DNA from: a virus | Virus record (IMG/VR): IMGVR_UViG_3300009788_000087 | Length of the DNA: 64,000 nucleotides | Direction: 5' to 3' (one strand) | Part shown: one piece after another, positions 8,942 to 61,770 of the stretch | How the letters are laid out: the number at the start of each line of letters is the position of its first letter | How positions within the stretch are numbered: the stretch's first letter is position 1 | Position numbers and translations under genes: made by a program | Notes under the pieces: model-generated | What the model was told of the DNA's origin: nothing | The model's input: the letters and a program-made list of their open reading frames with translations, nothing else | The model's database searches: none

Positions 8942-8944
8942 AAT

Positions 8945-25797: not shown

Positions 25798-26327
25798 GCG
25801 TGCTTTAAGTAACCAGCACGAGCCACGCAATATGCATCGGCCATGTCATAGCAATATGGTTGTGGATTACCATTTCTAGTCTCAACATATTTAAATTCAG
25901 GTACGATTTCCCTTACAAAGTCAAGAGTAAGCTTTTTCTTATTACTACCCTTTGGTATAATTAGGCCATCTCTTTTCATCGTCGCCTTCACTGTAGAAGG
26001 GTGGAGCATAATAGGTTCATTAAGTCCACTAAAGTGATACCACATCCACGATACTATTCCATTGAATGCCGCAAGCTTCATAATTGTCTGCTGTGATGTT
26101 CTACCACCAGAGAACCCTGATAACTTATCTTCTACAAAGATGTGTGTGAAACTGTCATCTAGACAACGGTCAACATCATGAAGATAACCTTCGACAGCTT
26201 TGGCTTTAGTCATGAGTGACTTATCGACTTTTCTCAAATCGATATAGTTAGCTGCATAGAATGACCCATCATCATTAAGGTAACACACACCCGTAATGGA
26301 TGTTGAAACGTCTAAACCAACTATCAT
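25776..26327 (-). CDS. ruvC: RuvC-like Holliday junction resolvase (183 aa)
   Basis: IVGLDVSTSITG, IFVED, DMADAYCVA acidic catalytic motifs. Confidence 0.88.
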   Translation of the reverse strand: MIVGLDVSTSITGVCYLNDDGSFYAANYIDLRKVDKSLMTKAKAVEGYLHDVDRCLDDSFTHIFVEDKLSGFSGGRTSQQTIMKLAAFNGIVSWMWYHFSGLNEPIMLHPSTVKATMKRDGLIIPKGSNKKKLTLDFVREIVPEFKYVETRNGNPQPYCYDMADAYCVARAGYLKHACDQQES

Positions 26328-27211
26328 TAGAAATCCAATTTGAGCCGGACGTTAATTTTATCCCGCTCTCGATTTCTAACTGGCTGTGCGAGTTTTGCGA
26401 TGCCGACCAACTTACGCTCTTTGTTATAGAGACCTACTGCAGTTACATAGGTGGTCGGATTGTCTCTTATAACACGTAGCTTATTGGATCCAGAGTCAAA
26501 AGTTGTGAAAGATGAATTATTCGATGCATTTGTTGCAGCGCCGTTAATACGACACATGAATACCTTAGTCGGCACTCGTTGTTGGCCGGCGAATGACACT
26601 CGTAGTAAGTCATTTGGCATTTGTGAACTCGGATTGACCTCTCCAAAATTCAGTAAAGCTGGATCCCTGATGACGATAAGACCCTCACTGTAAAATACAT
26701 TGCCAACTTTATTCCAATGCACACCTCTATAGTTTTCTTTATCTGCCGGGAAAGATGCAGAAGTTGCAGAACCTGATAGATATAGTCCACCTCTACCATC
26801 ATCAACGAGAATTCTCTGGATTGACTGGGAGAGAAATGAGTTACACTCTAGACGAACACTACCTGTAGCGATTGCTCGTCCATAGTATAAACTTGGGATA
26901 TGAACAACTCGAAATTCATTAATAGTTGCTTGTGATGATGGGATTAACTTCTTCTGTGTTATAAAATCCGCATTGTCATTTGGTGTCCATATTGGTCTCT
27001 GAGAAGAATTAAAGTTTTGCAATCTTCCATGTAATGATGAGCCATCTGGCGCATAATTAAACGCACCGGAGCCTGCTGCTCTTCCATGCAGGATCGACTT
27101 GGGTCCATCATTTAATCGTGCATATACAAGCAACCTTGAATCAGATCCACTTAAAACAAGTGTTCTATCAAACTTGATGACATCTCCGAAAAAGTACGAT
27201 TGTATGCCCAA
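26327..27211 (-). CDS. C-terminal part of a frameshifted baseplate/tail structural protein
   Basis: Ends TYVTAVGLYN...IAKLAQP...RLKLDF, paralogous to the C-terminus of 28120-29145. Continues the LamG domain of 27151-28089 after a 1-nt shift at 27170-27172. Confidence 0.7.
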   Translation of the reverse strand: MGIQSYFFGDVIKFDRTLVLSGSDSRLLVYARLNDGPKSILHGRAAGSGAFNYAPDGSSLHGRLQNFNSSQRPIWTPNDNADFITQKKLIPSSQATINEFRVVHIPSLYYGRAIATGSVRLECNSFLSQSIQRILVDDGRGGLYLSGSATSASFPADKENYRGVHWNKVGNVFYSEGLIVIRDPALLNFGEVNPSSQMPNDLLRVSFAGQQRVPTKVFMCRINGAATNASNNSSFTTFDSGSNKLRVIRDNPTTYVTAVGLYNKERKLVGIAKLAQPVRNRERDKINVRLKLDF

Positions 27212-28089
27212 ACTTTAGCGTCGAACATATAACCATGAAAAGTTTGAACCGTGTCACCTAAGCTAAAAAGACGTAAGCTCTCTGTTATTTCTGGTACAGG
27301 TAACGTTAGACTGCTAGTTGATCTGACACCAGCATCAACCATGTCGATTGTAAAGCTACCAGTATTATTTGAAACCCTAAATGCAACATGTTGCCAGCGA
27401 TCTCTTGTCACAGAGAAAGACGATGTTAGATTAATTGTTGCATCATCATCATTATTGAAAAACCCAAGTCTTCCATTTGATCCAGTGATGTAGAATCTCC
27501 ACTTCATCATAGTGGAATTAACAGTCATAGCCATGATTGTGTAGTCGTTATTACTACCACTAATCGATAGTGGTTTAATCATGGCTTCGATAGTATATGA
27601 TGCAGTCATCGTAGAGAAATCAGGGCCATCACCGAATGTTACTATATTCTGTGTACTCGGTTCAGAATACAACATGTAGTAATCATATGATGCAGTCGTA
27701 TAATCTACACTTACTTTCTCGTAGTAATCATATAAATTGAGGATTGGCCTAAAGTGCTCATCTCCCCAAAAACTATCATGTTGTTCTGTGTTTTTATCAA
27801 CAGCACGATTAACTACTTGAACATATGATACAGATCCAGTAAATGGATATGATGCACTGATCTGAACTTTCCCATCAATCGTATACGTATCCAGATTGTA
27901 GGTCGGCTGGATCGTTAGATCGGTACCAGTAGTTTCTCTTGAGCGGATACCCCCATAGAGACTTATGGAACCAGATGTGCCAACGCTGCCACGCCAACCA
28001 GCTGTTCCTGATGCTAATATTACCTTTGGACTTGTGTTAAGATTATAGTGAACAATGTCCGCAGGTCCAAATTTGTGGTAAACTGCCAT
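27151..28089 (-). CDS. N-terminal part (LamG domain) of the same frameshifted structural protein
   Basis: ATG at 28089 (MAVYHKF); LamG pattern YTIEAMIKP, WQHVAF, FHGYMFDAKVW. Confidence 0.75.
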   Translation of the reverse strand: MAVYHKFGPADIVHYNLNTSPKVILASGTAGWRGSVGTSGSISLYGGIRSRETTGTDLTIQPTYNLDTYTIDGKVQISASYPFTGSVSYVQVVNRAVDKNTEQHDSFWGDEHFRPILNLYDYYEKVSVDYTTASYDYYMLYSEPSTQNIVTFGDGPDFSTMTASYTIEAMIKPLSISGSNNDYTIMAMTVNSTMMKWRFYITGSNGRLGFFNNDDDATINLTSSFSVTRDRWQHVAFRVSNNTGSFTIDMVDAGVRSTSSLTLPVPEITESLRLFSLGDTVQTFHGYMFDAKVWAYNRTFSEMSSSLIEHLF

Positions 28090-28103
28090 CAATTCATGAC
28101 GTC

Positions 28104-28109
28104 TAAATA
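28104..28109 (-). promoter_or_regulatory. Candidate late-promoter element TATTTA
   Basis: TAnTTA in the 30-nt spacer, followed 6 nt later by an ATG-AAT-TGA mini-ORF that overlaps the gene start. Confidence 0.35.
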
Positions 28110-28119
28110 AATTTAAAGT

Positions 28120-29145
28120 TCAGTAATCCAATCTTATACGAAAAATTGCTTCAGTATCTGGGCTTTTTGTAATTGGTTTGTTGACTTTCGCAGCTGCAAG
28201 GAGATTATCATTTGGATCATAAAGACCAATTGTCGTGATATATGTCCTTGTCTGAAGGATATTGCTGCCAGATGTCACCCTGATTCTTTGTTCTGCGTCA
28301 ATGAACGTTGAGTTACTAGAATAATTGAACTCCGTATTCGTTGCTCTTGCGAAGTAAATCGTTGAGTGTAGGTTTGTCTGGTTGTGTAGATCCTTGCGTT
28401 CAATGTGTTCACGTAAACCGTCAACCAATGAGTCGATTGAAGATGATGCTTGAGCACCTTGTAGTGATACAGAACCTGTCCATGCAGCTACACCATTTTG
28501 AGTAATAGATGAATCCCATACGGTAGATGTAGGAAGAACAATCACTCCAGCATTATACCAAACCTGACCGACTTCATTACCAGAAGAACCGCTGATCTTC
28601 AACGGAGCATATTCGCCGCCGACATCTTGCTTGAAAGATGTTACTGCACCTTCGTCAGAAGCTGTATACTGTGCGACACCTGACTCTGCTAGATCTGTGT
28701 TGATCGTTAAAGCAATCGTACCTTTCTTAAGTTCATCTTTGTGGATGTTCCTCTTAAAAGCAATGAAGAATATCTCACTTCTTTCTGAACCAGCGACAGT
28801 GAATAATGAATCTCTATTTCCAAGAAGTGTTGAAGCAAAATGTCTGTACATCTTGATCTTCTCATTCTGAGAACTAGCTGCTGCTAGGTTTTGATTGAAT
28901 GACGAGCCAGTCGCGTAACCAAATGTCATATCAAACAATGGAGTACTCAATGAACTCGTTGGCGACGCGTCATATGCTGTCTGCCAATATCCACCAAGCT
29001 TTGTTGATGAACCAGATGAAATGTTATCGAAGAATTTGATGTTCTCCTCAACAGAATAAATCGATCCTGAGACCGCAATTACCTCATTTACAAATGAAAC
29101 GATTGACGCTACGTCGTTAGCTAAATCGAACTTCTTAAACGACAT
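28120..29145 (-). CDS. Baseplate/tail-associated structural protein (341 aa)
   Basis: C-terminal EFNYSSN.T...TYITTIGLYD..NLLAAAK..KP..K...RLDY, resembling the C-terminal half of tail-collar/fibre-attachment domains. Confidence 0.7.
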   Translation of the reverse strand: MSFKKFDLANDVASIVSFVNEVIAVSGSIYSVEENIKFFDNISSGSSTKLGGYWQTAYDASPTSSLSTPLFDMTFGYATGSSFNQNLAAASSQNEKIKMYRHFASTLLGNRDSLFTVAGSERSEIFFIAFKRNIHKDELKKGTIALTINTDLAESGVAQYTASDEGAVTSFKQDVGGEYAPLKISGSSGNEVGQVWYNAGVIVLPTSTVWDSSITQNGVAAWTGSVSLQGAQASSSIDSLVDGLREHIERKDLHNQTNLHSTIYFARATNTEFNYSSNSTFIDAEQRIRVTSGSNILQTRTYITTIGLYDPNDNLLAAAKVNKPITKSPDTEAIFRIRLDY

Positions 29146-29159
29146 TTTCTATTTTACTC

Positions 29160-29876: not shown

Positions 29877-29930
29877 GATATCAAACTCCGCGGGAACCTA
29901 CGTTCCCCATAATTATGGTTCTTTTTCCTT

Positions 29931-34256: not shown

Positions 34257-34257
34257 G

Positions 34258-37437: not shown

Positions 37438-38163
37438 TTATCTCCTCTCCTTCGAGAATCCAATAGATCTTGTAAGTGACTCAATCTTGTCAGAATCAGA
37501 CTTTCTCAAGTTTTTAGTCTCTTCATCTTTGAAAAGTCTCATATCACAATTGTATGAAAGAACACCTTTCTTGTCACGCTTTGGAACAACTTCTGTTAAA
37601 CCATTTGAAGCACTAACAAATACACGGACGAGGTTTCCCTCATGTGATGCTTTATCGAAATAGTCTTCAATTCTCTTACTGAACTCTAATCTTGAGCTAT
37701 TAAATTTCTTGAACCCACGATCGAATGGACCACTCTTTGTGATGACATTACCAGACTGATCTAACGTCACATAGATATCCTGAAGTCTCTGCTGCTTCAT
37801 CCCTATTGAGCCAGACGTTAGTTCAGGACTCGTTGATATTCGTGGCAGAATCTTCTGACCCTGTGGCATAGTGAATAACATGTTTTTTATGTTCGTCTGA
37901 TCCCGAGCTTCACTATTCATACCTTTTTGAAGTCCAAAAACAGCTTCTCGTACAAGTGTCGCTTCAATTTGCTCACCTTTTGACGCTGTTAACTGAGTGT
38001 TTGTTATGCTTCCACTAGTGCTGACATATGGATCATAGTCCACTTCATCATCAGAGAACGCATAATATGAGAACTCTAGTTCATTTTTCGAATATAGCTC
38101 ACGACCATAGTCAGTGAGAACCATGTCTATTACACGTGTGTTCTTATCGAGAAAACCAGCCAT
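37438..38163 (-). CDS. Baseplate/tail-associated structural protein (241 aa)
   Basis: MAGFLD...IDMVLTDYGRE...FSDDEVDY, paralogous to 29160-29876. Confidence 0.7.
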   Translation of the reverse strand: MAGFLDKNTRVIDMVLTDYGRELYSKNELEFSYYAFSDDEVDYDPYVSTSGSITNTQLTASKGEQIEATLVREAVFGLQKGMNSEARDQTNIKNMLFTMPQGQKILPRISTSPELTSGSIGMKQQRLQDIYVTLDQSGNVITKSGPFDRGFKKFNSSRLEFSKRIEDYFDKASHEGNLVRVFVSASNGLTEVVPKRDKKGVLSYNCDMRLFKDEETKNLRKSDSDKIESLTRSIGFSKERR

Positions 38164-38171
38164 CTGTCAGA

Positions 38172-38177
38172 TAACTA
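38172..38177 (-). promoter_or_regulatory. Candidate late-promoter element TAGTTA, 8 nt before the ATG
   Basis: TAnTTA overlapping the upstream stop; no SD before the ATG. Confidence 0.35.
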
Positions 38178-40073
38178 TAAAGATCCTGTAGTTGCCGCCG
38201 CAATGATATCACGAGATTGTGTTGTTAATCCCTTGTTGGCGATGATAGACCTGAGAGTCAATGCTCTTGACACGAGTGGTTTTGGTGCTACAGCATCATT
38301 TAGGATTCTAAGATTTTCTGATGGGTCAGTTTGTATGTCAAATGTTGGCTCTTCTCCTGATCCACTAGAAATTGGAATAAATGGTGTATCATATTCATTA
38401 ATGAGAAACCAAGTTGTATCACTACCTGTCAATCTAGTAGAAAGTGAGCCAGTCAACCTTGAAAAGACTGCAAAATCACTAAGGTTTGATGCTGTGTTTG
38501 ATGTTATCCCTACAGTTAGACCCGGTGATCTTGATGTTAGCTCATCATCATAGAAAATTGTAGATGTTCTACCTACAATAACATCTGGATTCACATGTTT
38601 TGGTCGATCTTCTCCAGGGCTCAAGGATCCACTGACTATTAGTGCTCTTCGCTTTGTTGCGAAAGTATCTGCATTTCTTACACTAAAGAGATGTTGTGAC
38701 ATTCTTCCTATACTTGGATCTTTATTTTTCTTGTAGGTTATCTCTAATCTTGCTTGTCTAAAATAACCCCTGACAAATGTTGTGTCACCTGTTCCTACTT
38801 CATCTGCATATATTCTTAGTGTCCAAACGCCATTAATCTCTGTGTTACGTAAACCTGGTCTTCTACCAATAATAAGTGGTGGCTCATGAGCTAACCCTGT
38901 TAAGGGCCATTCTTGAAGAAGAGGGTCTAATATTGGAAGATATGGTCTTATTGTTTCTGGGCCAAAATTTGATCCAGTTGTTGGCCATTCATTTGATCCA
39001 GTAACACCACCCGCAGCTGTGAGCCAACCGGCTGGAGGAGATCCCGCTGCAGCTTCTGATCCAGTTACGATTCCAGCATCACTTATCCATGATATTGAAC
39101 TTCCAGTGGCATATGCAACACCGGTTACAGCTTGCGCAGGAGAGCCTCTACCAAGTAAATGCTCATCTGCTACCTCAGAACCTGATGCAAAATATACTGT
39201 TACATCACAGGGATTTCTTTGATTTGATGAATCCCAGAAAATCGTTCTCATATTGACATCGGAATTCCAAACTCTTCTTTGCCCAGCAAGTCCAAACCCG
39301 ACATTCGATGTTCCACCAATCCATAGTAAAAACTGATTAGTAAAACGTGATGGGCTAAATTGATCGGAAGCTTCGATATCATTTCCTGCAGGCCAACCAT
39401 CAAAACCATTTACATTTGGAGATTCCAGTGTCACCCAAAGATTACCCAAGCGATGGTCTTTTTCAGATGGAACACCTATTCTCGTTGTTAAACACTCAAA
39501 CCAAATTTTAATATCAACCAAATTCCCATAATCAGAAACTTCAATTGGAATTGATAATGCTGGTACTAGCGCATTTCCGCTATTTTTATACTCTGTACCT
39601 TTCACAGCGTCTGTTGTTCCAAGATCTTCAGATCCTGATATTTTGTATGTTGTTGTAACAGTAGATGTCTTGCTATAGAATTCTGATCCACTTGCTGACA
39701 CTGCGGTCGACTCAAGCGCTAAAGAACGACTGAGGAATACGTTACGACTGTTTTCTATCGATGCTGTTACTTCATTTATCACAAACGCTTGGTTACGTCC
39801 AGTGTGTGTCTGTACCCACGACGGTGGAGTAGAGAAGTCGCTACCCACTCCATCGATAATTTCATGGCCAAGCTCAGTACGCAGTGCTTCGCCTTTCAGC
39901 CACTTGTTATATCTATTTCGCTCAGTTATTCGACGTGCGTTAATGCTACCTTCAACTTCAAGTGAAGATGTACTAGGTGCTCGTGGAGCATGTGTGATTA
40001 TCGATGTGGCACCTCGTGCATTGATACCAACTGAACCACCGGAAATCTTGATTGTGGTATTCTCGTCACTCAT
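38175..40073 (-). CDS. Virion protein with an interrupted proprotein-convertase P-domain-like fold (632 aa)
   Basis: IPIEVSDYG.LVDIKIW...LGNLWVTLESP and, about 200 aa later, INGVWTLRIYAD...G.FRQARLEI; 12 [ST]GS motifs. Confidence 0.6.
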   Translation of the reverse strand: MSDENTTIKISGGSVGINARGATSIITHAPRAPSTSSLEVEGSINARRITERNRYNKWLKGEALRTELGHEIIDGVGSDFSTPPSWVQTHTGRNQAFVINEVTASIENSRNVFLSRSLALESTAVSASGSEFYSKTSTVTTTYKISGSEDLGTTDAVKGTEYKNSGNALVPALSIPIEVSDYGNLVDIKIWFECLTTRIGVPSEKDHRLGNLWVTLESPNVNGFDGWPAGNDIEASDQFSPSRFTNQFLLWIGGTSNVGFGLAGQRRVWNSDVNMRTIFWDSSNQRNPCDVTVYFASGSEVADEHLLGRGSPAQAVTGVAYATGSSISWISDAGIVTGSEAAAGSPPAGWLTAAGGVTGSNEWPTTGSNFGPETIRPYLPILDPLLQEWPLTGLAHEPPLIIGRRPGLRNTEINGVWTLRIYADEVGTGDTTFVRGYFRQARLEITYKKNKDPSIGRMSQHLFSVRNADTFATKRRALIVSGSLSPGEDRPKHVNPDVIVGRTSTIFYDDELTSRSPGLTVGITSNTASNLSDFAVFSRLTGSLSTRLTGSDTTWFLINEYDTPFIPISSGSGEEPTFDIQTDPSENLRILNDAVAPKPLVSRALTLRSIIANKGLTTQSRDIIAAATTGSL

Positions 40074-40375
40074 TCGAACTTTAGTACCCTTGTCGCCTTG
40101 GGTGTATCTCCTGTTGTATCAACGTTTGCTGTTCGTCCCAGTTTAATAACACCTGACTCTATCAATATAATTGCTGCTTCCTTGCCCGTAACACTACCTC
40201 CGAGCATAACAGCACCTCTTCTTGGAGGAGGGAAGAGAATATCTTTTGTTGGTTCAGGTGGTGTAATTAGCTCTACATCGAAACCAACACCACCAAATGG
40301 TTCATCTAGACCGCCGAACCCACCGTCACCGAATCCAGTACCTTCAATGATGTTTTTTAATATAGGTTTTGCCAT
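40070..40375 (-). CDS. Hypothetical Gly/Pro-rich protein (101 aa)
   Basis: ORF track; 4-nt overlap with the downstream gene. Confidence 0.65.
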   Translation of the reverse strand: MAKPILKNIIEGTGFGDGGFGGLDEPFGGVGFDVELITPPEPTKDILFPPPRRGAVMLGGSVTGKEAAIILIESGVIKLGRTANVDTTGDTPKATRVLKFE

Positions 40376-40414
40376 CTATGATTATCCGATTGTATATTCC
40401 TCATTAGCGAGATT

Positions 40415-40816
40415 CTATGATTCAACGTCACCATTGACGAGCAATCGCGTTTCAAGCTTAAGACGCTCATCGACTTGTCGCAACGCTGTGAGATCGGATG
40501 CAATACCGGTCGTGATCGGTGCGGGGTTGCTCATGTCAGTGCCGGACTGGTCACCGTACTCGTCGCCTGCTACCGCCGATGATGCTAGGCGAAACCAACG
40601 TCGAACGGGTCGTGGATTCGAGAATGGGCCGTCAGCAGGCGTCATTCTGATTCGCTTCGACACGCGTGTAACCTTGCGTCGCTGGACGACCGGGTCAGCA
40701 TCGACGTCAGCTAAATTAATCGGGTCGCCGTTCTCGTCAACGTGATACTTGATGACCGTCTCATCGTAACTATCTGTATCTGTGCTCGTGCTCGTTGTCC
40801 AATTTGTCTGTGCCAT
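40415..40816 (-). CDS. Hypothetical protein (133 aa)
   Basis: ATG with AAGGA SD; GC-rich like the adjacent fibre module. Confidence 0.65.
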   Translation of the reverse strand: MAQTNWTTSTSTDTDSYDETVIKYHVDENGDPINLADVDADPVVQRRKVTRVSKRIRMTPADGPFSNPRPVRRWFRLASSAVAGDEYGDQSGTDMSNPAPITTGIASDLTALRQVDERLKLETRLLVNGDVES

Positions 40817-40840
40817 AATATTCCTTCGCGAATTATCTTA

Positions 40841-41281
40841 TTATCCAACTATATACTCTTCACCCTCTTCAAATTGTCCATCTAGACCAACTGAAATAGG
40901 TGATTGCCCAGCAAATACAACTGGCGGATGAATACCAACGACAGCATTATCACTACTTCGCCTAATTGGTTTGAAACCAAGCGCTAGAATCGCATCACGC
41001 TGCGCCACTGTCAGGTCTGCTACCAGTTTAATATCAGCACCAAGATGTGCAAGTGCAATTAAAATTTGCTTGGAGCCTGAACCGATGAACCAGAGTTTTC
41101 CTGCGAGTCGACCGATCTTGAAGACGGTCAATGCGTGGCCATCCCAACTCGCTGTGAATATCCCTGGCCCGGTCTTGACGAAGTACTCGCGGACGCCTTC
41201 ACCAATATCCGGCACCGTGCGTGTTCCGTGCTCATCGGTGATCTCGATTAGCTCGACGCCTATGACTACGGGGCGGCTCAT
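40841..41281 (-). CDS. Hypothetical protein, possibly a fibre chaperone (146 aa)
   Basis: ATGA overlap with the fibre/lectin gene; function inferred from position only. Confidence 0.6.
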   Translation of the reverse strand: MSRPVVIGVELIEITDEHGTRTVPDIGEGVREYFVKTGPGIFTASWDGHALTVFKIGRLAGKLWFIGSGSKQILIALAHLGADIKLVADLTVAQRDAILALGFKPIRRSSDNAVVGIHPPVVFAGQSPISVGLDGQFEEGEEYIVG

Positions 41282-43266
41282 GGTACATCCTTTCTCGGTT
41301 TGTTCCAAATGCGGATGCGTGCAATGGTCCCATTCAAGTATTGAGCCCCACCAGTGACGAAACCAAGACGTATTTTATCTGCGTTATTACCGGCAGTCCA
41401 TGTAACCGCAGCTCCTGCCGTTCGTACACCGTTGACATGAATGTCCCAGTTTTCCCCGGCGTGTTCGTCTAGTTCGTCCACTGAATCCCAGCGATAGCGA
41501 ACCGTGTGTCCAAGGTGGTGCGATGTCGCTGGTGAGGTGACTGTCTTGGTCACCTTGATTACAGCGCTACTATCCCAATGGACAAAATTCGGTCTATCGT
41601 TAACACCGGACGTTCCCTGATATTTCAGGACTAACCTATCGTTGAGCGGATTTCCAATCATCCAGACGTACCCGTCGGAGGCATCATTATCTAAAGATGC
41701 GGCACTAATCGATTCTACTTCGCCGGCCACAGGATTGTGATACGTGTTACCGCCCGCATTGAGCAAGACCACGTCCGTTTTTATTCGTGTTGCACTCGCA
41801 CCCGTTGGTGTTGGTATGTATGTCGTTGCCCCTTCATTTAAGTTGCCTCCAACATTTATCTCGAGCTGCCAGCCCCACTCAGCGATCTTGGAACCGTCGT
41901 CAACCTTGAGCCGGAACTCAATAGAGACGCAGCCGGCCGGCGTCGTGAACGTCGTCTCGTTCCGGCGCACCTTATCATCAACGTTGAAGTCGAGCGCCAA
42001 TGCGGCGGAACCAATCACAGCTGTGTTTGTTACGTCAAAGATCTCGACATCACCGAACGCATTGACGCCAGTATCGCCGCGGCCTGCAAACAAGCTCCAT
42101 GCGTAATCGGTCTCTGCGAGAACCGTGATTGTCTGCTTACGACCCTCGACTCCACCCGCTGCGGCAATCGTGTTCATTGTCTGTGTACCGTCAGGCGCCT
42201 CGTTGGCATTGGCGACACTGGTCGGCGTTCCTATGTCAACATAGTCAGTGCCGGTCGCAGCCTCTTCACTTCCTTTGCATAGATTTGTTGCAGCATCTTC
42301 GACAAATATTCCGAGCTTGCTTGCGTGTGTGTGGACGCTATTATATCCGCTCGCGAACTGGCCCGGGCCGTACTTGCCCACGCGGTCGCCGTAGGACGAG
42401 TCATCGCCTACGATCGGGCACGCCAAGCTCGCGCGGGTGTACGTGTCGAGCTCGGGGGTCGTGTTCTGTGTGGCATGCGTCCAGAAGGCGTCGAGGTCGC
42501 TCTGGCCGAGGCCCTCGGCGTCGGCGCCCTCGAAGATCGCGCAATAGGCGATATCTACCTTAGCCCCCTGCGTTCTGGATGCTCCCAAGGAGAACCCGAC
42601 CGTTGACGTAAGGTCTATCGTTCCCGCAATTGTCCCCGAGTCGCTGCCCTGGTCAGTGAAGAGTTTTACGTCTCCAGTGTTGCGGTCAATCATTGTGAGC
42701 GCGGCGTGCCAAGCATCATCCTGGTAATCGTAGGCCGCGTCTTGAACTGCGCCGGATACGGTGCCGGAATCTTCCCCGGACCAACCCCAAGTAATGCGAC
42801 CACCAGTCTGTGTCGTTATCCAGTAGCCATGCGGCGGTGTCGTTTGTCGCTTGCCAAATAGGTAAAGAGTCGTAGATGATGGGTGGAGACGGAATACGAG
42901 TAGCACAGCGATTGACGTAGTAGGAGCGTCGAACGGCGTTGCGCTCGCTGCTAGGAACTTCTGGTTTGTCGCATCATCGAAGGCTACACACTTCTTGTTG
43001 TAAGTATTTGTGCCGTCGTAGAACCCGACAGATGTTCGTCCCTGGTGGGGGGAGGTGGTCGGCACCAATGCGGTACTCGCAACCTCCCCGATAAGGTTTC
43101 CAGACGTCTCATCACAGAGCCAGATCTCGCTAGCAGTTCGCCCTGGGATCACACTCCCCGCCTGGTCCGGGAATGCCTGCTGAGCCGGCTCGCGGAAGTC
43201 TAGGTCTAGTAGCAGTTCGATGAACGCGCCCCTAAAAAATGCAACCGGTTTAACAACTGGACTCAT
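41278..43266 (-). CDS. Receptor-binding/lectin-type virion protein with LamG and CBM-like domains (662 aa)
   Basis: LamG block (DDAWHAALTMIDR, FSLGASR, DIAYCAIFEG); the tail-fibre-type motif IFVEDAATNL...EWGWQLE...ATTYIPT..ASATR; terminal YLNGTIARIRIWN; GC-rich. Confidence 0.75.
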   Translation of the reverse strand: MSPVVKPVAFFRGAFIELLLDLDFREPAQQAFPDQAGSVIPGRTASEIWLCDETSGNLIGEVASTALVPTTSPHQGRTSVGFYDGTNTYNKKCVAFDDATNQKFLAASATPFDAPTTSIAVLLVFRLHPSSTTLYLFGKRQTTPPHGYWITTQTGGRITWGWSGEDSGTVSGAVQDAAYDYQDDAWHAALTMIDRNTGDVKLFTDQGSDSGTIAGTIDLTSTVGFSLGASRTQGAKVDIAYCAIFEGADAEGLGQSDLDAFWTHATQNTTPELDTYTRASLACPIVGDDSSYGDRVGKYGPGQFASGYNSVHTHASKLGIFVEDAATNLCKGSEEAATGTDYVDIGTPTSVANANEAPDGTQTMNTIAAAGGVEGRKQTITVLAETDYAWSLFAGRGDTGVNAFGDVEIFDVTNTAVIGSAALALDFNVDDKVRRNETTFTTPAGCVSIEFRLKVDDGSKIAEWGWQLEINVGGNLNEGATTYIPTPTGASATRIKTDVVLLNAGGNTYHNPVAGEVESISAASLDNDASDGYVWMIGNPLNDRLVLKYQGTSGVNDRPNFVHWDSSAVIKVTKTVTSPATSHHLGHTVRYRWDSVDELDEHAGENWDIHVNGVRTAGAAVTWTAGNNADKIRLGFVTGGAQYLNGTIARIRIWNKPRKDVP

Positions 43267-43267
43267 C

Positions 43268-45973
43268 TTAACTCATATCCTGCACAAATGATCCAAGGAA
43301 ACTAGTGCCATCCCAGAGACCACTGACAATATCTATAGAACCTGAAGTCAGAGCAAGAACCGGCGCTACTCCACTCGGCCACTTGAATACTGAATCATAT
43401 GTCACCGCAAAGTCTGGTGTTGTGGCGTGCTGGGTTACTTTCATTAGTACCGTCATTCCTGCTTCCATCGATGTTGGTGCTTGTATCTGTACATCATCAC
43501 TAAGTACTAAATCCCACACTGTTCCGTGCGTTACTGCATCCGGTGTCACACTACCGCTTGTTGCAAGCACGCCAAATGACGCTGATAGTTTGTTGCCGTC
43601 GATCTCATCTGCACCACCAAGTTCGAGCTGTGTCGAAACATCGATGTATGTACCAGCCACGCTTATATCACCAATGACACTCACGTCACCTGCTGAATCC
43701 ACAGAGAAGCGATCGACAAAACCAGCGCTGTTTATGTTGCTGAACAAGTGCCATGCGCCGGTCGGATTTGCTGCGCCTTGCACTGGAATGATCTGCTGTG
43801 CGAATTGGACCTCTTGGCTTGAGGCAGTTACATTAGTCTTCCAGCCTTGACCTTCAAGCATGAACATCGGGCTGTACTGCTGTGCACCGGCGGTGGCGGC
43901 TGTGTCATTCGTGCAGCTCAACCCGACATCGGCATCCGTCGAAGAAGCCGCGACATTGTCAGGGCCTATTCCTTCGATTTTAAACCCGCTTGCGAGCACG
44001 TCGTCCCTCAGTGATATCGCTGATGACGTATAGCGCATCTTCTCGATACCGCCTGCGATAATCGAGACTGCGCCAGCGACGACGGCGCCGATGCCTCCAG
44101 TTGTGTCGGAGCGGTCCGGGCAGAGAGTGGGGTTATTAAACGCCGGCGCCTCATTGAGCATCGCCGGGCCGTTGGCGTCCTTCGTAAAGAAGTTGGCGCC
44201 GTAGACATCACCCCAGTGTCGCGATGTAGTTCCTAGGTCTAGACCGGTCACATCGATATTTGGCCTCATGCTTGAACTGTCTACAAAGACCTCAGCGTTG
44301 CCACCAACAGCGAAGGTTATTTGCGTAAAACCGTTGACAGATGTATTACCGCCAGCCTCTGCCCTGACAGCATAGTGTGTAAGATCTTCTCTTTGATCGA
44401 AGTGGCTAAAATATGCGGTATCTGTCGCAGGTGAGGAAAATGCTGCACGCCCGAAGACGAAAGTCGAATCCGTGTTCGGTGCTGCGTTGATAACTCTCGG
44501 GTCTGTAATGGTTACGTTTGTGTCACCAGTCGGTGCTGCATCAATGAACAGTGTGGACGCCACAGCAATCGTGTCGCCACCGCCGTCGTCACTTGTGTAC
44601 GTCGGTGCAAGGATACGTACTGCTGTTTGATCAGTGGTAACATCCACGAAGTTGATCGACGGTGACAGGTCGAACAGCGCGCTGGTCGCGTCCGCATCTG
44701 CGAGATTCGTGTGTGGTGCTCCAGTGATTTTGAATGCATTAGGCGTTCCGCTGGTTCTCGTCGCCTGAAGAATACCTACGCTAGCCAGATTCGAAAACGT
44801 TGCAGTGGCGGAGATGTTGCCAAACGTCAGTCTTGGTAAGCCAGCCACTACACAATAGAGGTTGTTCGCTGCGCTCGACAGTCCGGTGGTCAGGTTCGCC
44901 CTGTCCGGGATGATAGTCGGATTGATCGTCGATGCCGCCTCGTTGAGGATTGCCGGGCCGTTGGCGTCGGCCGCCTGGATTGAACCACCGAATGTGAGAT
45001 CAGTGCCATCAAATATAAGATTCGCATTTTCAGCAACTTGGTTGCTTCCATCTTCATATACTACACGATTTGCTGTACCACCATTGATCGGCGCTCCAAT
45101 AGAAAACCCACTTGCACCACCCGGTCTAGAATCTGCCGTTCCATCGAAGTGAATGTAATAACCCTCAGATCCACTATCAATGATTGTTCCAATTTTACGA
45201 TCTACAACATCGAGGAATGGACTAATGATACCGTCTGATCGAGCAAATACATCATCACCGATCTTTGCATCTAATGATGAAGTTAGCGGTCCGAATAGAC
45301 CTGTATGACGTGCAATAAAGAAACTGCCAGAAGCTGGATCTCCTGGAATCCCTGCTGTCGAGCCAGACACCACAATGTCAGAGCCTGTAATTGACGTGCC
45401 CTCCACCACGTAGAGACTGCTCTGGAAGCTCCCAGTCGCTTCACCTGACACTTTAGCGAATTCGAGTAAGCGCTCCTCACCAGGCAACCCAGGTTGGACT
45501 CGAAGCGAACCAGACGGCCTGATGAGATCACCTCTCTGGAGAGCTTCCTGTGCAAGACCGACAACAAACTGGCCCTCACCGAGCATGTCATTGACTACAG
45601 ATGTTAATTCCTGCTGAGCTCGAGCCCAACCAAAGCTACCTGATCTCTCTGTCTTCTCACCTGCAGCAGGAGAACTAAGGTTTGACTTCTGGTGCCTAAA
45701 TGCTATGATTGCTGAACTTGTGAGAGAGACATCTGCGTCGACAATATTGAGAACAAGATAATTGCCTTCCTTACTTCCGGTCAGAGTTGTACTGAATGCT
45801 ACCGGATCAGTAAATCCATCATAACTGCCTGATGGTTGGCTACCTGTAGCTGCAACCCATAAGATAGTTGACTCACCGCCATCACCATCGTTATCGAGAG
45901 TTACTGCAGAACCTATGACAGCTTCATAGTATGAACCTGTGATACCATTTATGACAATTTGTGATTGCGCCAT
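43268..45973 (-). CDS. Mosaic tail fibre-like protein (901 aa)
   Basis: Gly/Ala/Thr-rich, internal duplicated module, C-terminal fibre-type domain (FKWPSGVAP.L..TSGSIDIVS..WDG); located in the baseplate region. Confidence 0.7.
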   Translation of the reverse strand: MAQSQIVINGITGSYYEAVIGSAVTLDNDGDGGESTILWVAATGSQPSGSYDGFTDPVAFSTTLTGSKEGNYLVLNIVDADVSLTSSAIIAFRHQKSNLSSPAAGEKTERSGSFGWARAQQELTSVVNDMLGEGQFVVGLAQEALQRGDLIRPSGSLRVQPGLPGEERLLEFAKVSGEATGSFQSSLYVVEGTSITGSDIVVSGSTAGIPGDPASGSFFIARHTGLFGPLTSSLDAKIGDDVFARSDGIISPFLDVVDRKIGTIIDSGSEGYYIHFDGTADSRPGGASGFSIGAPINGGTANRVVYEDGSNQVAENANLIFDGTDLTFGGSIQAADANGPAILNEAASTINPTIIPDRANLTTGLSSAANNLYCVVAGLPRLTFGNISATATFSNLASVGILQATRTSGTPNAFKITGAPHTNLADADATSALFDLSPSINFVDVTTDQTAVRILAPTYTSDDGGGDTIAVASTLFIDAAPTGDTNVTITDPRVINAAPNTDSTFVFGRAAFSSPATDTAYFSHFDQREDLTHYAVRAEAGGNTSVNGFTQITFAVGGNAEVFVDSSSMRPNIDVTGLDLGTTSRHWGDVYGANFFTKDANGPAMLNEAPAFNNPTLCPDRSDTTGGIGAVVAGAVSIIAGGIEKMRYTSSAISLRDDVLASGFKIEGIGPDNVAASSTDADVGLSCTNDTAATAGAQQYSPMFMLEGQGWKTNVTASSQEVQFAQQIIPVQGAANPTGAWHLFSNINSAGFVDRFSVDSAGDVSVIGDISVAGTYIDVSTQLELGGADEIDGNKLSASFGVLATSGSVTPDAVTHGTVWDLVLSDDVQIQAPTSMEAGMTVLMKVTQHATTPDFAVTYDSVFKWPSGVAPVLALTSGSIDIVSGLWDGTSFLGSFVQDMS
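44163..44968 (-). repeat. Duplicated ~30-aa module in the fibre gene with a 17-nt identical core
   Basis: gccgggccgttggcgtc at 44163-44179 and 44952-44968; peptides ANGPAILNEAASTINPTIIPDR and ANGPAMLNEAPAFNNPTLCPDR. Confidence 0.85.
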
Positions 45974-45979
45974 TCTGAT

Positions 45980-45985
45980 TAATTA
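45980..45985 (-). promoter_or_regulatory. Candidate late-promoter element TAATTA, 6 nt before the ATG
   Basis: TAnTTA in the spacer upstream of the fibre gene. Confidence 0.4.
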
Positions 45986-46009
45986 CCTTAAAACAAAGAA
46001 CATGTACAG

Positions 46010-46177: not shown

Positions 46178-46181
46178 TATA

Positions 46182-49100
46182 CTATGAACCGCCACCGATC
46201 AAAAGCGGGAATTTCTTACCTGACTTATCTTTGTTTCTTCCGAATCTCGTCCAGACTTCAATCCTACCCTCAGGAACAAATTGTGTTTCTTGGTTTTTCC
46301 TTCTCTCATATGTCACTTTTGGACGTTCTAGCATGTGGCTCTCTACCACGAACTCATCGCCGATGAAATATGCACGAGCGGGAATTAGTTTCTTCACCAT
46401 CTCGATAAATGTTCGATCGAAGAATTCAAGCATATCTGCAAAAATAGTGAAGTTCAAACGACCTTGCAGACGCTTGAAGTAATTGTCTCGAAGTATTCGA
46501 ATATCATCATAATGAATTCGATACTTGTTTGCCGGGAATCCGATTGCTTGGTTTAATTCGTCGAGTGATACAAGCATCTGAACGATATCTTCATTTAATG
46601 CATCGATCATATTGAACTCTAGACTGACGATCTTCAAGTCATTAACGAAATCGGATCTTTTTAGTGTCGTTGTATTGAATGTACGAACTTTATCTTCATT
46701 CCATCCAAAGTCTAGTGATGCGATATAGTGGTATCTATTCAAAAACTTCTTGTAACTTTGTTGATCTGAAGCAAATAATAGACCATTAAGAAAACCTAAA
46801 GGATCTGGTATTGCAAGATTTTCGATATCTGAGATAAGAGTACCGACACTTTCATCTCCGCCATTAAGCCTTAGGTGAATCTTAAGATCACTAAGGTTTT
46901 CGTTAATGTCGTTAACGCCATAGCTTTGAAAGTTTATAGCATGATCATCAAGCTCATCTTTCGTTAAAACTCGATCCCAATATCTAATTTCTTGAGCCCA
47001 AAACTGACTCTGTGTAGTTTTACCAAGTGATGAACCGACACCATGTGTATCCGAACCGATGCCGCCGACTGTAATACTATTCCATTTTCCAACAAATATC
47101 TGACCACTTTCAACACTACCAGAACTTCCCACGGCAGATAAATCTATATCTCCACTTTCATCAATATGGCGTACTTCGATCGATATTGATGAACTCAATT
47201 GATTTTTAATAATAGCAACGTTGTACCACTCGTTGTTAAATATCCCTATGCTATCTGTCTTTATATTAAGACTAAGTGAATCAGAAGAAGAAAGAGCAAG
47301 AGTTCCTGTATGCGATCCAACACTATCTTTATGGTACCACAACCCCATACCTGTTGCTGCAGTGAAATCGCCTGTAGACATTAAAAAACCCTCTGTGAGA
47401 GTTGCTTGAATATCTGTCGAGGAAGTTAAAGGAAATCTAAATCTACCTTCTAGAGTAAAACTACCTGTGCCTTGAAATGATCCTGCCCCTAGTGGAAACC
47501 TAGCTTCAACACGACTAAGAACCGATCCTGACCCGAACCCAAGAGCATATACTGATTTATCTGCCGTTATTCGTTTAGTTTGAATGCTCACTTCTGGCTG
47601 GTGACTATACTCCTTTAATCTTACGAAATTTTCATTGACACCATATGCTCTTAGAAGAGACTTAACACTCTCACGTGTACCTTTCGTTTTATATAAGTGC
47701 ATGAGGTTAATGAGTGTCCTTCGCCAGAACTCATTTTTAATCTCAAATAATTTCTTATCAAGATCCTCATTCGACTGAACATTCTTGAGCACAGATCTTC
47801 CGATCAGATATTGGAATGCATCAGTATTCAAGAAGTTGCCAGTAAACTCCCAACCAAAGAATTTCGCAACAACGTCAAGTAATGCGTCAGGTGTTTGATC
47901 GAAATCGCTGTAGTTAACTTTTAGAACATTGATAAACTGATCGATGTTAGACTTGATTATATCGTAATGACGAGCTGCGATGAGGACGAAGTTCTTAAGA
48001 ACATCTGTCTGACCCTGTTGCAGCTCTTCAAGTTTAAAGAAATTCTCAGGCAACATGTCGGTAATTTTATTGCTGTTCTGTCTGTCGTAAGCACTTCCAG
48101 ATGCCTGCTGCACAGCGATATATTCTGATATATCCGAAGTATTGAGGTTTAGAATTAGATCTGGATCCTCTCTAACCAAAAATGTGCCGCTGTGTCTTAG
48201 TGCACTGTGATAGTTTTGAATACGACCATTTAATCCATGACCTGAATAGTCGAGAGCAATCTTGTTGTCTTCATTTTCGAATGCTGATCCCGTTGTGTTG
48301 AATCTATACAACGCATTGAGGTTCTTCTGTGCGAATTGTTTTACATTGAATGATGAGCTAATCTCCTGTATAGTTCGTGCCTTATTCCAGATCTTTACGT
48401 CATCTATAGATCCTGTAAACCATACATTTAATCCAGCCGTAACGGCCGGTAGTTCTAATGTACCAGAACCAATGTAGAGATTCTCAGCAGGAATGTCAAG
48501 GGCCTCATGTATATTAATTGAAGCAGACTGGGCTATGACTGGAAATTCTGTTTGACTGCCTGTTAAAATCGCAATTGAACCAGTAAACGATGATCGATTA
48601 AAGATACCTGCAACATATTGAATAGTACTAGGAGCAAATGGTGTTGAAACTGAATCTGCAACAGAACCTGACCTTACCATGAATGTTATGTTTGAGCCAG
48701 TCAGGAACAGAGAGTAACCGTAGCGTTCCGTCGATGATGAGCCGCTCATCTTTTGGATAAGCATCTGGAAATCGTCTGTGCCCGTTAGAGCAACAGACGG
48801 TTCATACCACATCTCAACAGTCAGCGAACCGGTTCCAGGACTCAGCAGACCATTTTTTGCCTTGCCGTTCTCACTGCCAATGTCTTCAATGGCGACGTAT
48901 GACTTAGCAATCGTTGGATCGATCCTTAAGTGACCAACAGACTTCGGCCAAGCTTTAACTACATGTTGTTGATATTGGTCTAAGTCATTTTCGAATCTCT
49001 CAATGTTTTCACATGTCCCGTCAAAAGGATATTCATTGAGTATCTTCTCACCAGTAATATTGAAATAATCAAGTGCTGAGTTGAAGAATACAAAGTTGTC

Positions 49101-49283
49101 AAAATCAGAATAGTCGATCTTTAGACGCGTCGTTTCAAGGTTAGAAATACGTTCAAGAATTAATCCTTGCTCTTCCTCATTACTAGAAATTGTTTCAAGA
49201 GTATGCGGATCGGTGGCTACAAGTCCGGACTCAATTTTTAACTGATCTCTAAAGAGATCAAATAGATCATTCGCCACTTCCAC
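46182..49283 (-). CDS. Large baseplate wedge-associated protein with two LamG domains (1033 aa)
   Basis: LamG motifs (LTVEMWY, IDDVKIWNKART..EI; WYNVAII, EIRYWDRVLT); the DFDQTPDALLD.VAKFFGW segment resembles wedge proteins of the P2 gpI/T4 gp7 type; next to gp6. Confidence 0.7.
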   Translation of the reverse strand: MEVANDLFDLFRDQLKIESGLVATDPHTLETISSNEEEQGLILERISNLETTRLKIDYSDFDNFVFFNSALDYFNITGEKILNEYPFDGTCENIERFENDLDQYQQHVVKAWPKSVGHLRIDPTIAKSYVAIEDIGSENGKAKNGLLSPGTGSLTVEMWYEPSVALTGTDDFQMLIQKMSGSSSTERYGYSLFLTGSNITFMVRSGSVADSVSTPFAPSTIQYVAGIFNRSSFTGSIAILTGSQTEFPVIAQSASINIHEALDIPAENLYIGSGTLELPAVTAGLNVWFTGSIDDVKIWNKARTIQEISSSFNVKQFAQKNLNALYRFNTTGSAFENEDNKIALDYSGHGLNGRIQNYHSALRHSGTFLVREDPDLILNLNTSDISEYIAVQQASGSAYDRQNSNKITDMLPENFFKLEELQQGQTDVLKNFVLIAARHYDIIKSNIDQFINVLKVNYSDFDQTPDALLDVVAKFFGWEFTGNFLNTDAFQYLIGRSVLKNVQSNEDLDKKLFEIKNEFWRRTLINLMHLYKTKGTRESVKSLLRAYGVNENFVRLKEYSHQPEVSIQTKRITADKSVYALGFGSGSVLSRVEARFPLGAGSFQGTGSFTLEGRFRFPLTSSTDIQATLTEGFLMSTGDFTAATGMGLWYHKDSVGSHTGTLALSSSDSLSLNIKTDSIGIFNNEWYNVAIIKNQLSSSISIEVRHIDESGDIDLSAVGSSGSVESGQIFVGKWNSITVGGIGSDTHGVGSSLGKTTQSQFWAQEIRYWDRVLTKDELDDHAINFQSYGVNDINENLSDLKIHLRLNGGDESVGTLISDIENLAIPDPLGFLNGLLFASDQQSYKKFLNRYHYIASLDFGWNEDKVRTFNTTTLKRSDFVNDLKIVSLEFNMIDALNEDIVQMLVSLDELNQAIGFPANKYRIHYDDIRILRDNYFKRLQGRLNFTIFADMLEFFDRTFIEMVKKLIPARAYFIGDEFVVESHMLERPKVTYERRKNQETQFVPEGRIEVWTRFGRNKDKSGKKFPLLIGGGS

Positions 49284-49425
49284 TCACCTCACAGAATTCA
49301 ATAAACTCATCCACGAGCTCATCATACTCTTTTTCAGACAATTCATTACATTCTAAGCAGTATGTTTCACAGCTTCCTCGAAGCTCATCTTCATATTCTC
49401 TTCTTGTCTTGTATTTGAACTCCAC
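49267..49425 (-). CDS. Small acidic Cys-containing hypothetical protein (52 aa, below the track cut-off)
   Basis: GTG overlaps the upstream TAG; reads MEFKYKTRREYEDELRGSCETYCLECNELSEKEYDELVDEFIEFCEVSGSGE; fills the 140-nt gap. Confidence 0.45.
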   Translation of the reverse strand: MEFKYKTRREYEDELRGSCETYCLECNELSEKEYDELVDEFIEFCEVSGSGE

Positions 49426-50801
49426 TATATGACCCTAAACCTAAAGTCTTGATTGACTTTTTGTAGTTGTCCATCAATCTCAAAGAAAAACACGAGATTA
49501 TACACTTCTCTCTGTGATAGACTGCTCATAAAGAATTTGAAGTAGTTTCCATTCTTATCATATGACAATCTAGTAGTTTCTAATGTTCCTGTGCCAAGAG
49601 GAATTACATTTTTCTCAGTAAGTGCATTGTCAACACGATAATATCCCTTTGTGATGACAGTGTTGCCCATTTTAAGAGATCCTGTTAGTACAACTGCAGG
49701 ATTATAGGATCTTGTACGAACAAAGAGATTAAAGCGAATATCTTCATTTAACTCATACTCTTTTTTAAGATTCTTTACACTAACGACATGCTGTTCTTGC
49801 TTGTTTTCCTCGAATGGACCATCTTTAAATGGTGTAAACGTACCAGTTAAATATGATACGCTTGACGAGTGCCAAACATCATTAAATCTTGAACCAGAAT
49901 ATGATGCAGACGTAAATGTGAATGATGCACTGTATATTCCTGTCAATCCAGTGTGAGATCCAGATATTTGTTGGATAAATGAACCGCTTGGGTCTTGGAT
50001 TGTTACTGTTAAGACTTCACCGGATGTCCCGATTCCAGCAATATTTGCTAAAGTTCCTTTTGATTTATTGTAGAGGAATAACGTGTTTGAAGCATCGAAA
50101 GCAAGATTATCCCTATCATCCTTTAGTGAATCATCCCATCTCATTTCAATGGATGGTCTTTTATCTAAGAAATTTGTTTCACGACCATGAAATTTCTTTC
50201 TAAAGTAATTGATACTATCAGTTTCTTCTGCATCTGTGAGCTTGAGTAAGAAACCATTATTTGGAAGACCACCAGTTAACCAAGCACCTACAATATTTGT
50301 TACATCAACCTCTATATCTTCATTCCCTGTTACAAACGATGCAGTATTAATCGAAGTCGTAAGGAAATCACTTCCAGTTGTTGTCCAAAGAATTGCTCGT
50401 GTCGCTTTATCCCAGTTTGCCTCTCCTTTATCGAGATATTCTTCATGGTCAATACCAACACCCTCTGTCCAGGATTGTGACAAAGGTATAATGTCAAGAT
50501 CAAAGCTTGTTGGAACCGTATCAACGTGGATCGCGTTAGTCATCCTAAGCACGTACGTAGAACCGGTTGATGGAGCTCTACCAGACGCTGTGAGTGCAGC
50601 TATTCCAGATAAATCAAACTGAAGTAGTGTCCTTGCAAGACTAGCCGTCGCGGTTACTGTCAAAGATCCAGAAATTCCTCTCTTCTTGAAGATCTCAAGT
50701 ATCTCAGATGCACCGAAGTTTGATCCAGTCATCTGTACAGCATTTTTCTGCACATTCGTAATAAATGTGTCTTTCTCAGGGTATATTCTGAAGATCGCCA
50801 T
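49425..50801 (-). CDS. Baseplate-region protein with DNRLRE-like carbohydrate-binding domain (458 aa)
   Basis: IYPEKDTFIT...NFGASEILEI...RTLLQFDL...W.EG.G...NW...NNGFLLK pattern; eight [ST]GS motifs. Confidence 0.65.
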   Translation of the reverse strand: MAIFRIYPEKDTFITNVQKNAVQMTGSNFGASEILEIFKKRGISGSLTVTATASLARTLLQFDLSGIAALTASGRAPSTGSTYVLRMTNAIHVDTVPTSFDLDIIPLSQSWTEGVGIDHEEYLDKGEANWDKATRAILWTTTGSDFLTTSINTASFVTGNEDIEVDVTNIVGAWLTGGLPNNGFLLKLTDAEETDSINYFRKKFHGRETNFLDKRPSIEMRWDDSLKDDRDNLAFDASNTLFLYNKSKGTLANIAGIGTSGEVLTVTIQDPSGSFIQQISGSHTGLTGIYSASFTFTSASYSGSRFNDVWHSSSVSYLTGTFTPFKDGPFEENKQEQHVVSVKNLKKEYELNEDIRFNLFVRTRSYNPAVVLTGSLKMGNTVITKGYYRVDNALTEKNVIPLGTGTLETTRLSYDKNGNYFKFFMSSLSQREVYNLVFFFEIDGQLQKVNQDFRFRVI

Positions 50802-61768: not shown

Positions 61769-61770
61769 AT

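Follow-up and report, generated by a model that had tools for sequence, protein, structure and literature searches.

An order-specific [ST]-G-S motif in the virion proteins of an uncultured T4-like phage as a candidate acceptor for O-glycosylation

Introduction

Why should one short tripeptide, serine or threonine followed by glycine and serine ([ST]-G-S, or [ST]GS), recur so densely in the virion proteins of a phage? The question is raised by a stretch of DNA of 64,000 nucleotides (nt), here called the window, from the uncultured T4-like phage IMGVR_UViG_3300009788_000087, to which no similar DNA was found among 50,697 phage records. Every long open reading frame (ORF) in the window lies on the minus strand, and the gene set includes a gp23-type capsid, a gp20 portal with an intein, a T4-type large terminase, a fused SbcCD, a primase and gp25. 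The baseplate/fibre module comes after gp25, running from ~53 kb down to 26 kb, and a nucleotide-sugar/glycosyltransferase (GT) cluster lies upstream of it, at 57-64 kb. A first-pass annotation made from the sequence had proposed that the phage coats its exposed virion proteins with sugars made by this cluster, using [ST]GS as the acceptor. The present analysis supports the conclusion that the motif is real, protein-level, order-specific and confined to virion proteins. It also suggests, with a probability that we put at roughly 0.4, that [ST]GS is a sequon-like site at which virion proteins are O-glycosylated, with sugars that differ between lineages. Of the original proposal, the specificity of the motif stands and the link to the heptose genes of the window does not.

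Phage virion glycosylation has so far been documented mainly in a few actinobacteriophages. No description of a short internal sequon for phage glycosylation was found in the literature searched, and within that literature [ST]GS would, if the reading holds, have no precedent as a defined sequon for protein glycosylation in phages. If the proteins are unmodified, the motif would still be an unusually strict, lineage-specific structural rule needing explanation.

Results

The motif is enriched in virion proteins and depends on residue order

Translation of the window gave 71 ORFs (20,862 residues), and expected motif numbers were corrected for the composition of each protein. The hand counts of [ST]GS in the first-pass annotation were reproduced protein by protein, and the enrichment survived the composition correction that it had proposed as a check: the whole window proteome holds 78 motifs, compared with a mean of 17.5 and a maximum of 31 in 2000 within-protein shuffles (Poisson tail, 3e-26). 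SGS (44 against 9.4 expected, z = 11.3) and TGS (34 against 8.2, z = 9.0) are the two most over-represented of all tripeptides in the window proteins, while the permutations and variants SGT, TGT, GSS, SSG, STG and GST stay near expectation. The signal is concentrated in ten virion proteins, with 68 motifs against 7.9 expected (~8-fold); the remaining window proteome has 10 against 9.7. Under a first-order Markov model of the motif-rich set, SGS still occurs 37 times against 15.2 expected and TGS 31 times against 15.0, an excess of about two-fold although the Markov expectation already includes the motif's own contribution. The motif-rich proteins, with lengths in amino acids (aa), are as follows.

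49425..50801, minus strand: 458-aa peripheral baseplate protein, directly after the gp6-like gene; 8 motifs against 0.63 expected
46182..49283, minus strand: 1033-aa baseplate/fibre-network protein, with a Pfam LamG_3 domain at residues 143-309; 12 motifs against 1.10
43268..45973, minus strand: 901-aa fibre; 11 motifs in the N-terminal 270 aa, against 0.93
38175..40073, minus strand: 632-aa virion protein; 12 motifs against 1.37
37438..38163, minus strand: 241-aa protein; 2 motifs against 0.30
28120..29145, minus strand: 341-aa baseplate-module protein; 6 motifs against 0.63
27151..28092, minus strand: 313-aa LamG_3 protein, the upstream half of a split gene; 5 motifs against 0.59
26327..27211, minus strand: 294-aa ORF in a different frame, the downstream half of the split gene; 4 motifs
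10342..10647, minus strand: 101-aa protein encoded among the head genes; 3 motifs in a span of 35 residues, against 0.19
1434..3152, minus strand: gp23-type major capsid protein (Pfam Gp23); 3 motifs, at residues 189, 210 and 226, against 0.64

Almost no matches for these proteins were found in PHROGs. In the 1033-aa protein, 7 of the 12 motifs fall within the LamG domain. The capsid motifs (residues 189-228) precede the best-scoring Pfam-matched stretch (residues 313-563), and the 101-aa protein, which has no family match, may be a decoration protein. The portal, terminase and primase contain no motif and SbcCD contains one, as the hand counts had indicated.

The nine motifs that the first-pass annotation had assigned to a single open frame at 26327-28089 are all present (5 + 4), divided between two ORFs whose reading frames differ and which share 61 nt; in the related 185-kb IMG/VR genome G001, the orthologue is a single 874-aa protein. 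Either an indel in the assembly or a true or programmed frameshift could account for the frame break at 26327-28092. Near it, at ~27190, is a T5 run, and no clear slippery site was identified there.

Within the ten motif-rich proteins, Ser follows [ST]G in 52% of instances, a 5.1-fold enrichment, compared with just 1.2-fold for Thr, and Ser or Thr precedes 72% of all GS dipeptides. The Asx equivalents are depleted (NGS, 0 against 4.1 expected; DGS, 2 against 5.5). A weaker companion, [ST]AS, occurs 19 times against 6.8 expected, a value reached in 0 of 1000 shuffles. At positions -1 and -3 there is a mild excess of hydrophobic residues and Thr, and at position +2 of Thr and aromatic residues. 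Two established sequons are not enriched in these proteins: the Bacteroidota O-glycosylation sequon D[ST][AILVMT] (20 against 22.2) and the N-glycosylation sequon N-x-[ST], which is slightly depleted (38 against 49.8). More than 40 different 9-mers encode [ST]GS, with TCN and AGY serine codons at both serine positions; therefore, selection acts on the protein.

GC-rich modules lack the motif

The following protein provides a contrast from within the baseplate/fibre region.

41278..43266, minus strand: 662-aa lectin-like protein with a partial LamG_3 domain and a GC content of 0.55; 0 motifs against 0.76 expected

The GC-rich proteins at 8054-8941, 9496-10341 and 7278-8054 likewise have no motif, in agreement with the first-pass annotation, which had reported that the GC-rich lectins and esterase lack it. 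Its description of the 901-aa fibre was also borne out: the 11 N-terminal motifs are followed by a GC-rich middle (residues 271-805) with none and by a C-terminal part, matched by a PHROG tail fibre family, with two (residues 806 and 877). Taken together, the GC-rich modules hold 0 motifs where their composition predicts 2.7, a weakly significant deficit (P = 0.07), and where the rate in the enriched proteins would predict ~23, a striking one. GC content is 0.50-0.55 across 42-46 kb, against ~0.40 elsewhere.

As a separate observation, blocks of GC 0.50-0.57 (40000-46000 and 7278-10341) stand within a genome of ~0.40 GC. Besides LamG lectin-like proteins they encode a sialate/carbohydrate esterase of the SASA type and the central part of the 901-aa fibre, and they resemble receptor-binding modules of recent import.

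The motif follows a clade of T4-like phages

The 632-aa protein has 8 homologues (27-38% identity), and all 8 show 4-9 fold enrichment, some sites being shared and many private. The 458-aa protein has 307 homologues, and 116 of these were aligned (42-63% identity); each of the 116 carries 3-11 motifs (mean 7.1 against 0.74 expected), distributed over ~25 recurrent sites with occupancies from 3% to 97%. The alternatives found at motif sites in this alignment are TAS, SAS, SSS, SGT, TGT and TGG, and at conserved sites the serine codon family switches between orthologues. The same orthologue set is enriched in a 209-kb JGI contig (56 against 12.4) and in G001, where the capsid orthologue has no motif.

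The trait extends to cultured phages. In Microcystis phage Mel-JY01 and Flavobacterium phage immuto, whose gp6 proteins are 34-36% identical, the baseplate modules contain 45 [ST]GS against 6.7 expected and 61 against 14.0, respectively, and the sheaths and other virion proteins are also enriched. Both phages, like G001, have orthologues of the 341-aa protein. The evidence from Mel-JY01 consists of the baseplate module: a low-complexity stretch rich in SGT/TSG/GTS repeats at L028:635-3052 gives a long spurious ORF on the plus strand, opposite annotated minus-strand genes, which inflates raw genome-wide tripeptide counts and was left out. The immuto fibre genes (L024:34650-38460) contain a repeated block, [ST]GSF[ST]GSFxGDGSxLTG(I/L), that no Pfam family covers, and one fibre protein of 1053 aa has 26 motifs. 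Rhodothermus phage RM378 shows moderate overall enrichment (52 against 19.4), mainly in putative tail proteins. The related huge phage LR756508 is not enriched, either in its baseplate module (6 against 3.0) or in its head region (13 against 9.1). By these sequence comparisons, the motif is a clade trait.

Several simpler origins of the signal were considered and rejected. A DNA-level cause, such as a repeat or a restriction or methylation site, is incompatible with at least 40 encoding 9-mers, the use of both serine codon families and the family switches between orthologues. Local richness in Ser, Thr and Gly would not leave the permutations unenriched, and the excess survived the Markov correction. 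A GC-content effect is ruled out by LR756508, which has the same GC (0.38-0.40). A LamG family signature is ruled out since detected LamG domains account for only ~10 of the 78 motifs and the partial LamG domain of the GC-rich protein is free of them. Finally, a general property of T4-like fibres is ruled out by the virion proteins of T4 (8 against 12.7) and by cyanophage P-HM1, giant Ser/Thr/Gly-rich fibres included (28 against 23.7), neither of which is enriched.

Motif sites lie in loops that do not require the motif

An AlphaFold (AF2) model of the 458-aa protein, built from the 116-sequence alignment, reached a mean confidence (pLDDT) of 91.2 and predicts a CBM96-like sandwich followed by Ig/macroglobulin-like sandwiches. 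Seven of the eight motifs are in coil, where they typically form the last loop residues before a strand, and one is in a strand. For the 632-aa protein, nine aligned sequences gave only an unusable model (pLDDT 40). The LR756508 orthologue of the 458-aa protein is recognizable at E = 1e-21 to its Mel-JY01 and immuto counterparts, yet has 0 [ST]GS, compared with 3-8 in the others, and 1 [ST][GAS][ST], compared with 7-17; therefore, the fold does not require the motif. The hosts of the motif span LamG, CBM96-like and Ig-like domains, fibre N-termini, sheath and capsid.

These results bear on the possibility that [ST]-G-S is an unmodified structural idiom, a loop or strand-entry cap or an aid to folding or assembly that is inherited and re-created. 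Motifs located in loops at strand starts would fit such a role, as would the swapping of G, A and S in the middle position at the same alignment sites and the periodic repeat SGSFSGSFxGDGSxLTG that holds the motif in immuto fibres; part of the signal is in LamG domains, and the trait follows phylogeny. An idiom of this kind would, however, be expected in the LR756508 orthologue, which belongs to the same family and has no motif, and in the virion proteins of T4 and P-HM1, which are not enriched. A turn idiom would moreover favour NGS and DGS, which are depleted, and Thr is not accepted at position 3. The motif also occurs across unrelated folds, and the GC-rich surface modules function without it. 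We regard a purely structural role as the main rival of the sequon-like reading, and as somewhat less likely than it.

The sugar cluster of the window does not define the motif

The cluster at 57-64 kb comprises two groups of genes.

57211..58863, minus strand: predicted nucleoside diphosphate (NDP)-heptose mini-pathway, consisting of an HldE-type kinase, an adenylyltransferase and a HAD phosphatase (NCBIfam rfaE_dom_I, rfaE_dom_II and EcbF-BcbF)
58766..63858, minus strand: nucleotide-sugar dehydrogenase, 343-aa ORF, 4,6-dehydratase/epimerase, 192-aa ORF, CgeB-like GT and cupin (Pfam/NCBIfam)

The NCBIfam matches of the heptose genes are all below the curated cut-offs, the HldE-like kinase is split, and GmhA was not found in the window. 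The 343-aa and 192-aa ORFs have no family match in Pfam or NCBIfam, and the CgeB-like GT (62340-63263) matches Glyco_trans_1_2 only. The glycan locus begins ~4 kb upstream of the baseplate genes, an arrangement shared with the related IMG/VR records G001-G004, and the part in the window is the start of a larger locus that runs past the window edge. The GT at 62340-63263 is present near the baseplate modules, at 46-51% identity, in four of five related IMG/VR records (G001-G004), and has no homologue among the 50,697 phage records. Homologues of the heptose kinase and the 343-aa ORF were found in G001 and G002 only, and neither these two nor the GT has a homologue in Mel-JY01, immuto or LR756508.

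The first-pass annotation had tied the motif to this cluster, expected the two to co-occur, and held that equally strong enrichment in phages without sugar genes would count against the proposal. Cluster genes do accompany the motif in the immediate lineage. Because Mel-JY01 and immuto are fully enriched without them, the heptose machinery cannot define the motif, and the heptose-specific form of the proposal fails. Both phages carry other sugar clusters. All of these large phages have other GT1/GT2 genes, so that the mere possession of sugar genes is not discriminating.

In the specific model that the first-pass annotation had put forward, two GTs at 59.7-63.3 kb would place heptose, made by the genes at 57-59 kb, on [ST]GS in the manner of AAH/TibC. 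A candidate kinase, adenylyltransferase and phosphatase set for NDP-heptose is present, the GT at 62340-63263 is kept beside the baseplate module in four related records, and a multi-GT fusion protein in G001 includes a GT9 (heptosyltransferase-type) domain. A heptosyltransferase of the TibC/AAH family (GT9-related) was nevertheless not found among the window proteins, neither window candidate matches GT9, and the G001 fusion has no TibC match in the PDB. [quoted passage not shown] Together with the equal enrichment of Mel-JY01 and immuto in the absence of the kinase, the 343-aa ORF and the GT, these results make the heptose model very improbable.

A phage-specific glycosyltransferase family tracks the motif

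Proteome comparison revealed a gene trio conserved across the clade, a PD-(D/E)XK nuclease followed by two GT4 glycosyltransferases, here called GT-B1 and GT-B2. The locus is complete or partial in the following genomes.

G001: 147346-154191
immuto: L032:17008-20927
Mel-JY01: L029:31375-36302
RM378: L034:8212-11893
LR756508: 303690-306748

GT-B1 corresponds to G001 151882-153207, immuto gp181 and RM378 p013, is split into two ORFs in Mel-JY01, and is also present in LR756508. GT-B2 corresponds to immuto gp180 and Mel-JY01 84935-86302; in G001 and G002 it forms the N-terminal domain of the GT4+GT9+GT2 fusion of ~1050 aa, and RM378 p014 is a diverged GT-B2 (20% identity over ~400 residues, pairwise E = 3e-7). 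In LR756508, the nuclease and GT-B1 are retained and GT-B2 is missing, both genome-wide and at the syntenic position. Among the 50,697 phage records, GT-B2 was found in immuto and Mel-JY01 only; T4 and P-HM1 therefore lack it. In the ESM Atlas, GT-B2 falls in virus-only GT4 clusters. Across six lineages, the presence of GT-B2 tracks motif enrichment. In immuto, whose DNA has been subjected to chemical analysis, the only reported change to the DNA is the replacement of dG by fdPreQ1, a formylated deazaguanine (bioRxiv 10.1101/2023.04.13.536721), and the five-GT cluster of this phage therefore probably acts on a target other than DNA.

Discussion

Several lines of evidence lead us to favour the reading of [ST]GS as a sequon. 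The motif has a strict order and a hydroxyl requirement, is restricted to virion proteins and is independent of fold; its density is kept while positions turn over, and foreign modules are devoid of it; and it is missing from the homologous protein of LR756508, a sister lineage without GT-B2. O-glycosylation is the most plausible chemistry because of the large soluble glycan loci. In the mechanism that we propose, [ST]-G-S and, more weakly, [ST]-A-S would be an acceptor under selection in loops of exposed baseplate, fibre, sheath and small head proteins. A soluble phage-encoded GT would recognize the motif in the cytoplasm late in infection, and a hydroxyl of the motif would become O-glycosylated; the leading candidate is the Ser in third position, which is strictly required. 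Lineage-specific enzymes would then extend the glycan, which may be heptose-based in this lineage and contain amino or methylated sugars in immuto. The best candidate for the motif-reading enzyme is GT-B2, a member of a phage-specific GT4 family encoded beside GT-B1 and not a gene of the window.

A number of observations weigh against this reading. A promiscuous cytoplasmic enzyme might select against the motif in non-virion proteins, yet no significant avoidance is seen there (32 against 40.7 in the non-structural ORFs of Mel-JY01, immuto and G001, P ~0.1), and motif positions are barely better conserved than control triplets (25.6% compared with 21.4%). Solvent exposure of the sites is deduced from secondary structure only. 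LR756508 is the single informative contrast behind the correlation with GT-B2, which phylogeny otherwise confounds. The GT4 pair adjoins the PD-(D/E)XK nuclease in every genome, and in immuto and RM378 other DNA-metabolism genes are nearby; such neighbours might indicate that the pair acts on nucleic acid, or elsewhere. In the genome from which the window comes, the candidate GT-B2 gene would lie beyond the 64 kb, its placement being taken from the orthologous locus in G001. Virion modification in this clade is itself a prediction from sequence, as is the choice of enzyme and residue.

If the sequon-like reading is correct, it may apply widely. One might tentatively suppose that a deep T4-like clade, with Microcystis, Flavobacterium and Rhodothermus hosts, shares an O-glycosylation code in which GT-B2, perhaps together with GT-B1, reads [ST]-G-S and a lineage-specific, swappable glycan coat is built on tails and fibres; this extension is somewhat less secure than the acceptor role itself.

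The hydroxyl, virion and loop specificity of the motif would fit any enzyme or partner that reads [ST]GS, and so would also be compatible with a different Ser/Thr modification, such as phosphorylation, acylation or ADP-ribosylation, with recognition by an assembly chaperone or with weak binding to host glycans. Functions of this kind appear improbable to us: no protein kinase, acyltransferase or dedicated chaperone was found that tracks the motif, large soluble glycan clusters are present in every enriched genome, and glycan binding should not call for so strict an order of residues.

Two known systems combine features that resemble those predicted for this sequon. In Gram-positive bacteria, the serine-rich repeat adhesins are glycosylated in the cytoplasm by GtfA/GtfB, an adjacent pair of GT-B-fold enzymes that modify Ser in S-(small)-S contexts. 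In the clade described here, two GT4 genes are likewise adjacent, and the motif has the form [ST]-[G/A]-S. The pair has no significant similarity to GtfA, however (best GtfA-type match, Gtf1 5e9t, E = 0.8), and the acceptors are loops of folded beta-sandwiches and not low-complexity serine repeats. In the chlorovirus PBCV-1, virus-encoded cytoplasmic GTs glycosylate the major capsid protein with N-linked glycans at non-canonical sites. A glycan machinery of the virus's own and non-standard acceptor motifs would be common to both, in the present case as predicted from sequence. PBCV-1 differs in being a eukaryotic virus with N-linked glycans, and the weak match of GT-B1 and GT-B2 to its GT B736L (PDB 3oy2) covers only the generic GT4 nucleotide-binding region.

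Among phages, a close parallel is provided by mycobacteriophages, siphoviruses in which virion O-glycosylation places glycans at the C-termini of capsid and tail-tube subunits (Freeman et al. 2023, Cell Host Microbe, as summarized in PMC12619734). According to that summary, it has been proposed that soluble GTs of the phage attach glycans to its structural proteins in the cytoplasm, which would give rise to a glycan coat on the virion, and GT genes are associated with structural genes in both systems. In contrast, the sites predicted here are in internal loops across the baseplate, fibre and sheath of T4-like myoviruses, and the same summary (PMC12619734) describes no short internal sequon. 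The BAHT enzymes AAH and TibC, which act on the AIDA-I/TibA autotransporters, carry out cytoplasmic O-glycosylation of Ser/Thr at many sites of beta-rich surface proteins, as is predicted here (PMC4358343; PMC3835316). Their donor is an NDP-heptose, and a putative pathway for its supply is encoded in this phage lineage. Unlike them, the phage system would rely on a strict tripeptide, mostly at the loop end; no TibC-like enzyme was detected, and the motif occurs in relatives without heptose genes.

The ~8-10 fold signal points out individual candidate residues in hundreds of proteins from metagenomes and in three cultured phages, immuto, Mel-JY01 and RM378, in which the question is directly testable. 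A true sequon would serve as a predictor of glycan-coated phage surfaces, with bearing on host recognition, stability and the stickiness of particles in water, and would provide a candidate enzyme family and a short tag for glyco-engineering.

Other features of the window

Two further genes of the window have unusual architectures. The portal gene (13306-16425, minus strand; 1039 aa) contains, near its N-terminal part, an intein with an HNH endonuclease domain; the intein occupies residues 90-453 and the portal domain residues 453-830. At 21674-24862 (minus strand), a single ORF of 1062 aa encodes a fusion of SbcD (metallophosphoesterase) and SbcC (SMC/AAA), and the SbcCD orthologue in G001 is likewise one protein, of 1053 aa.

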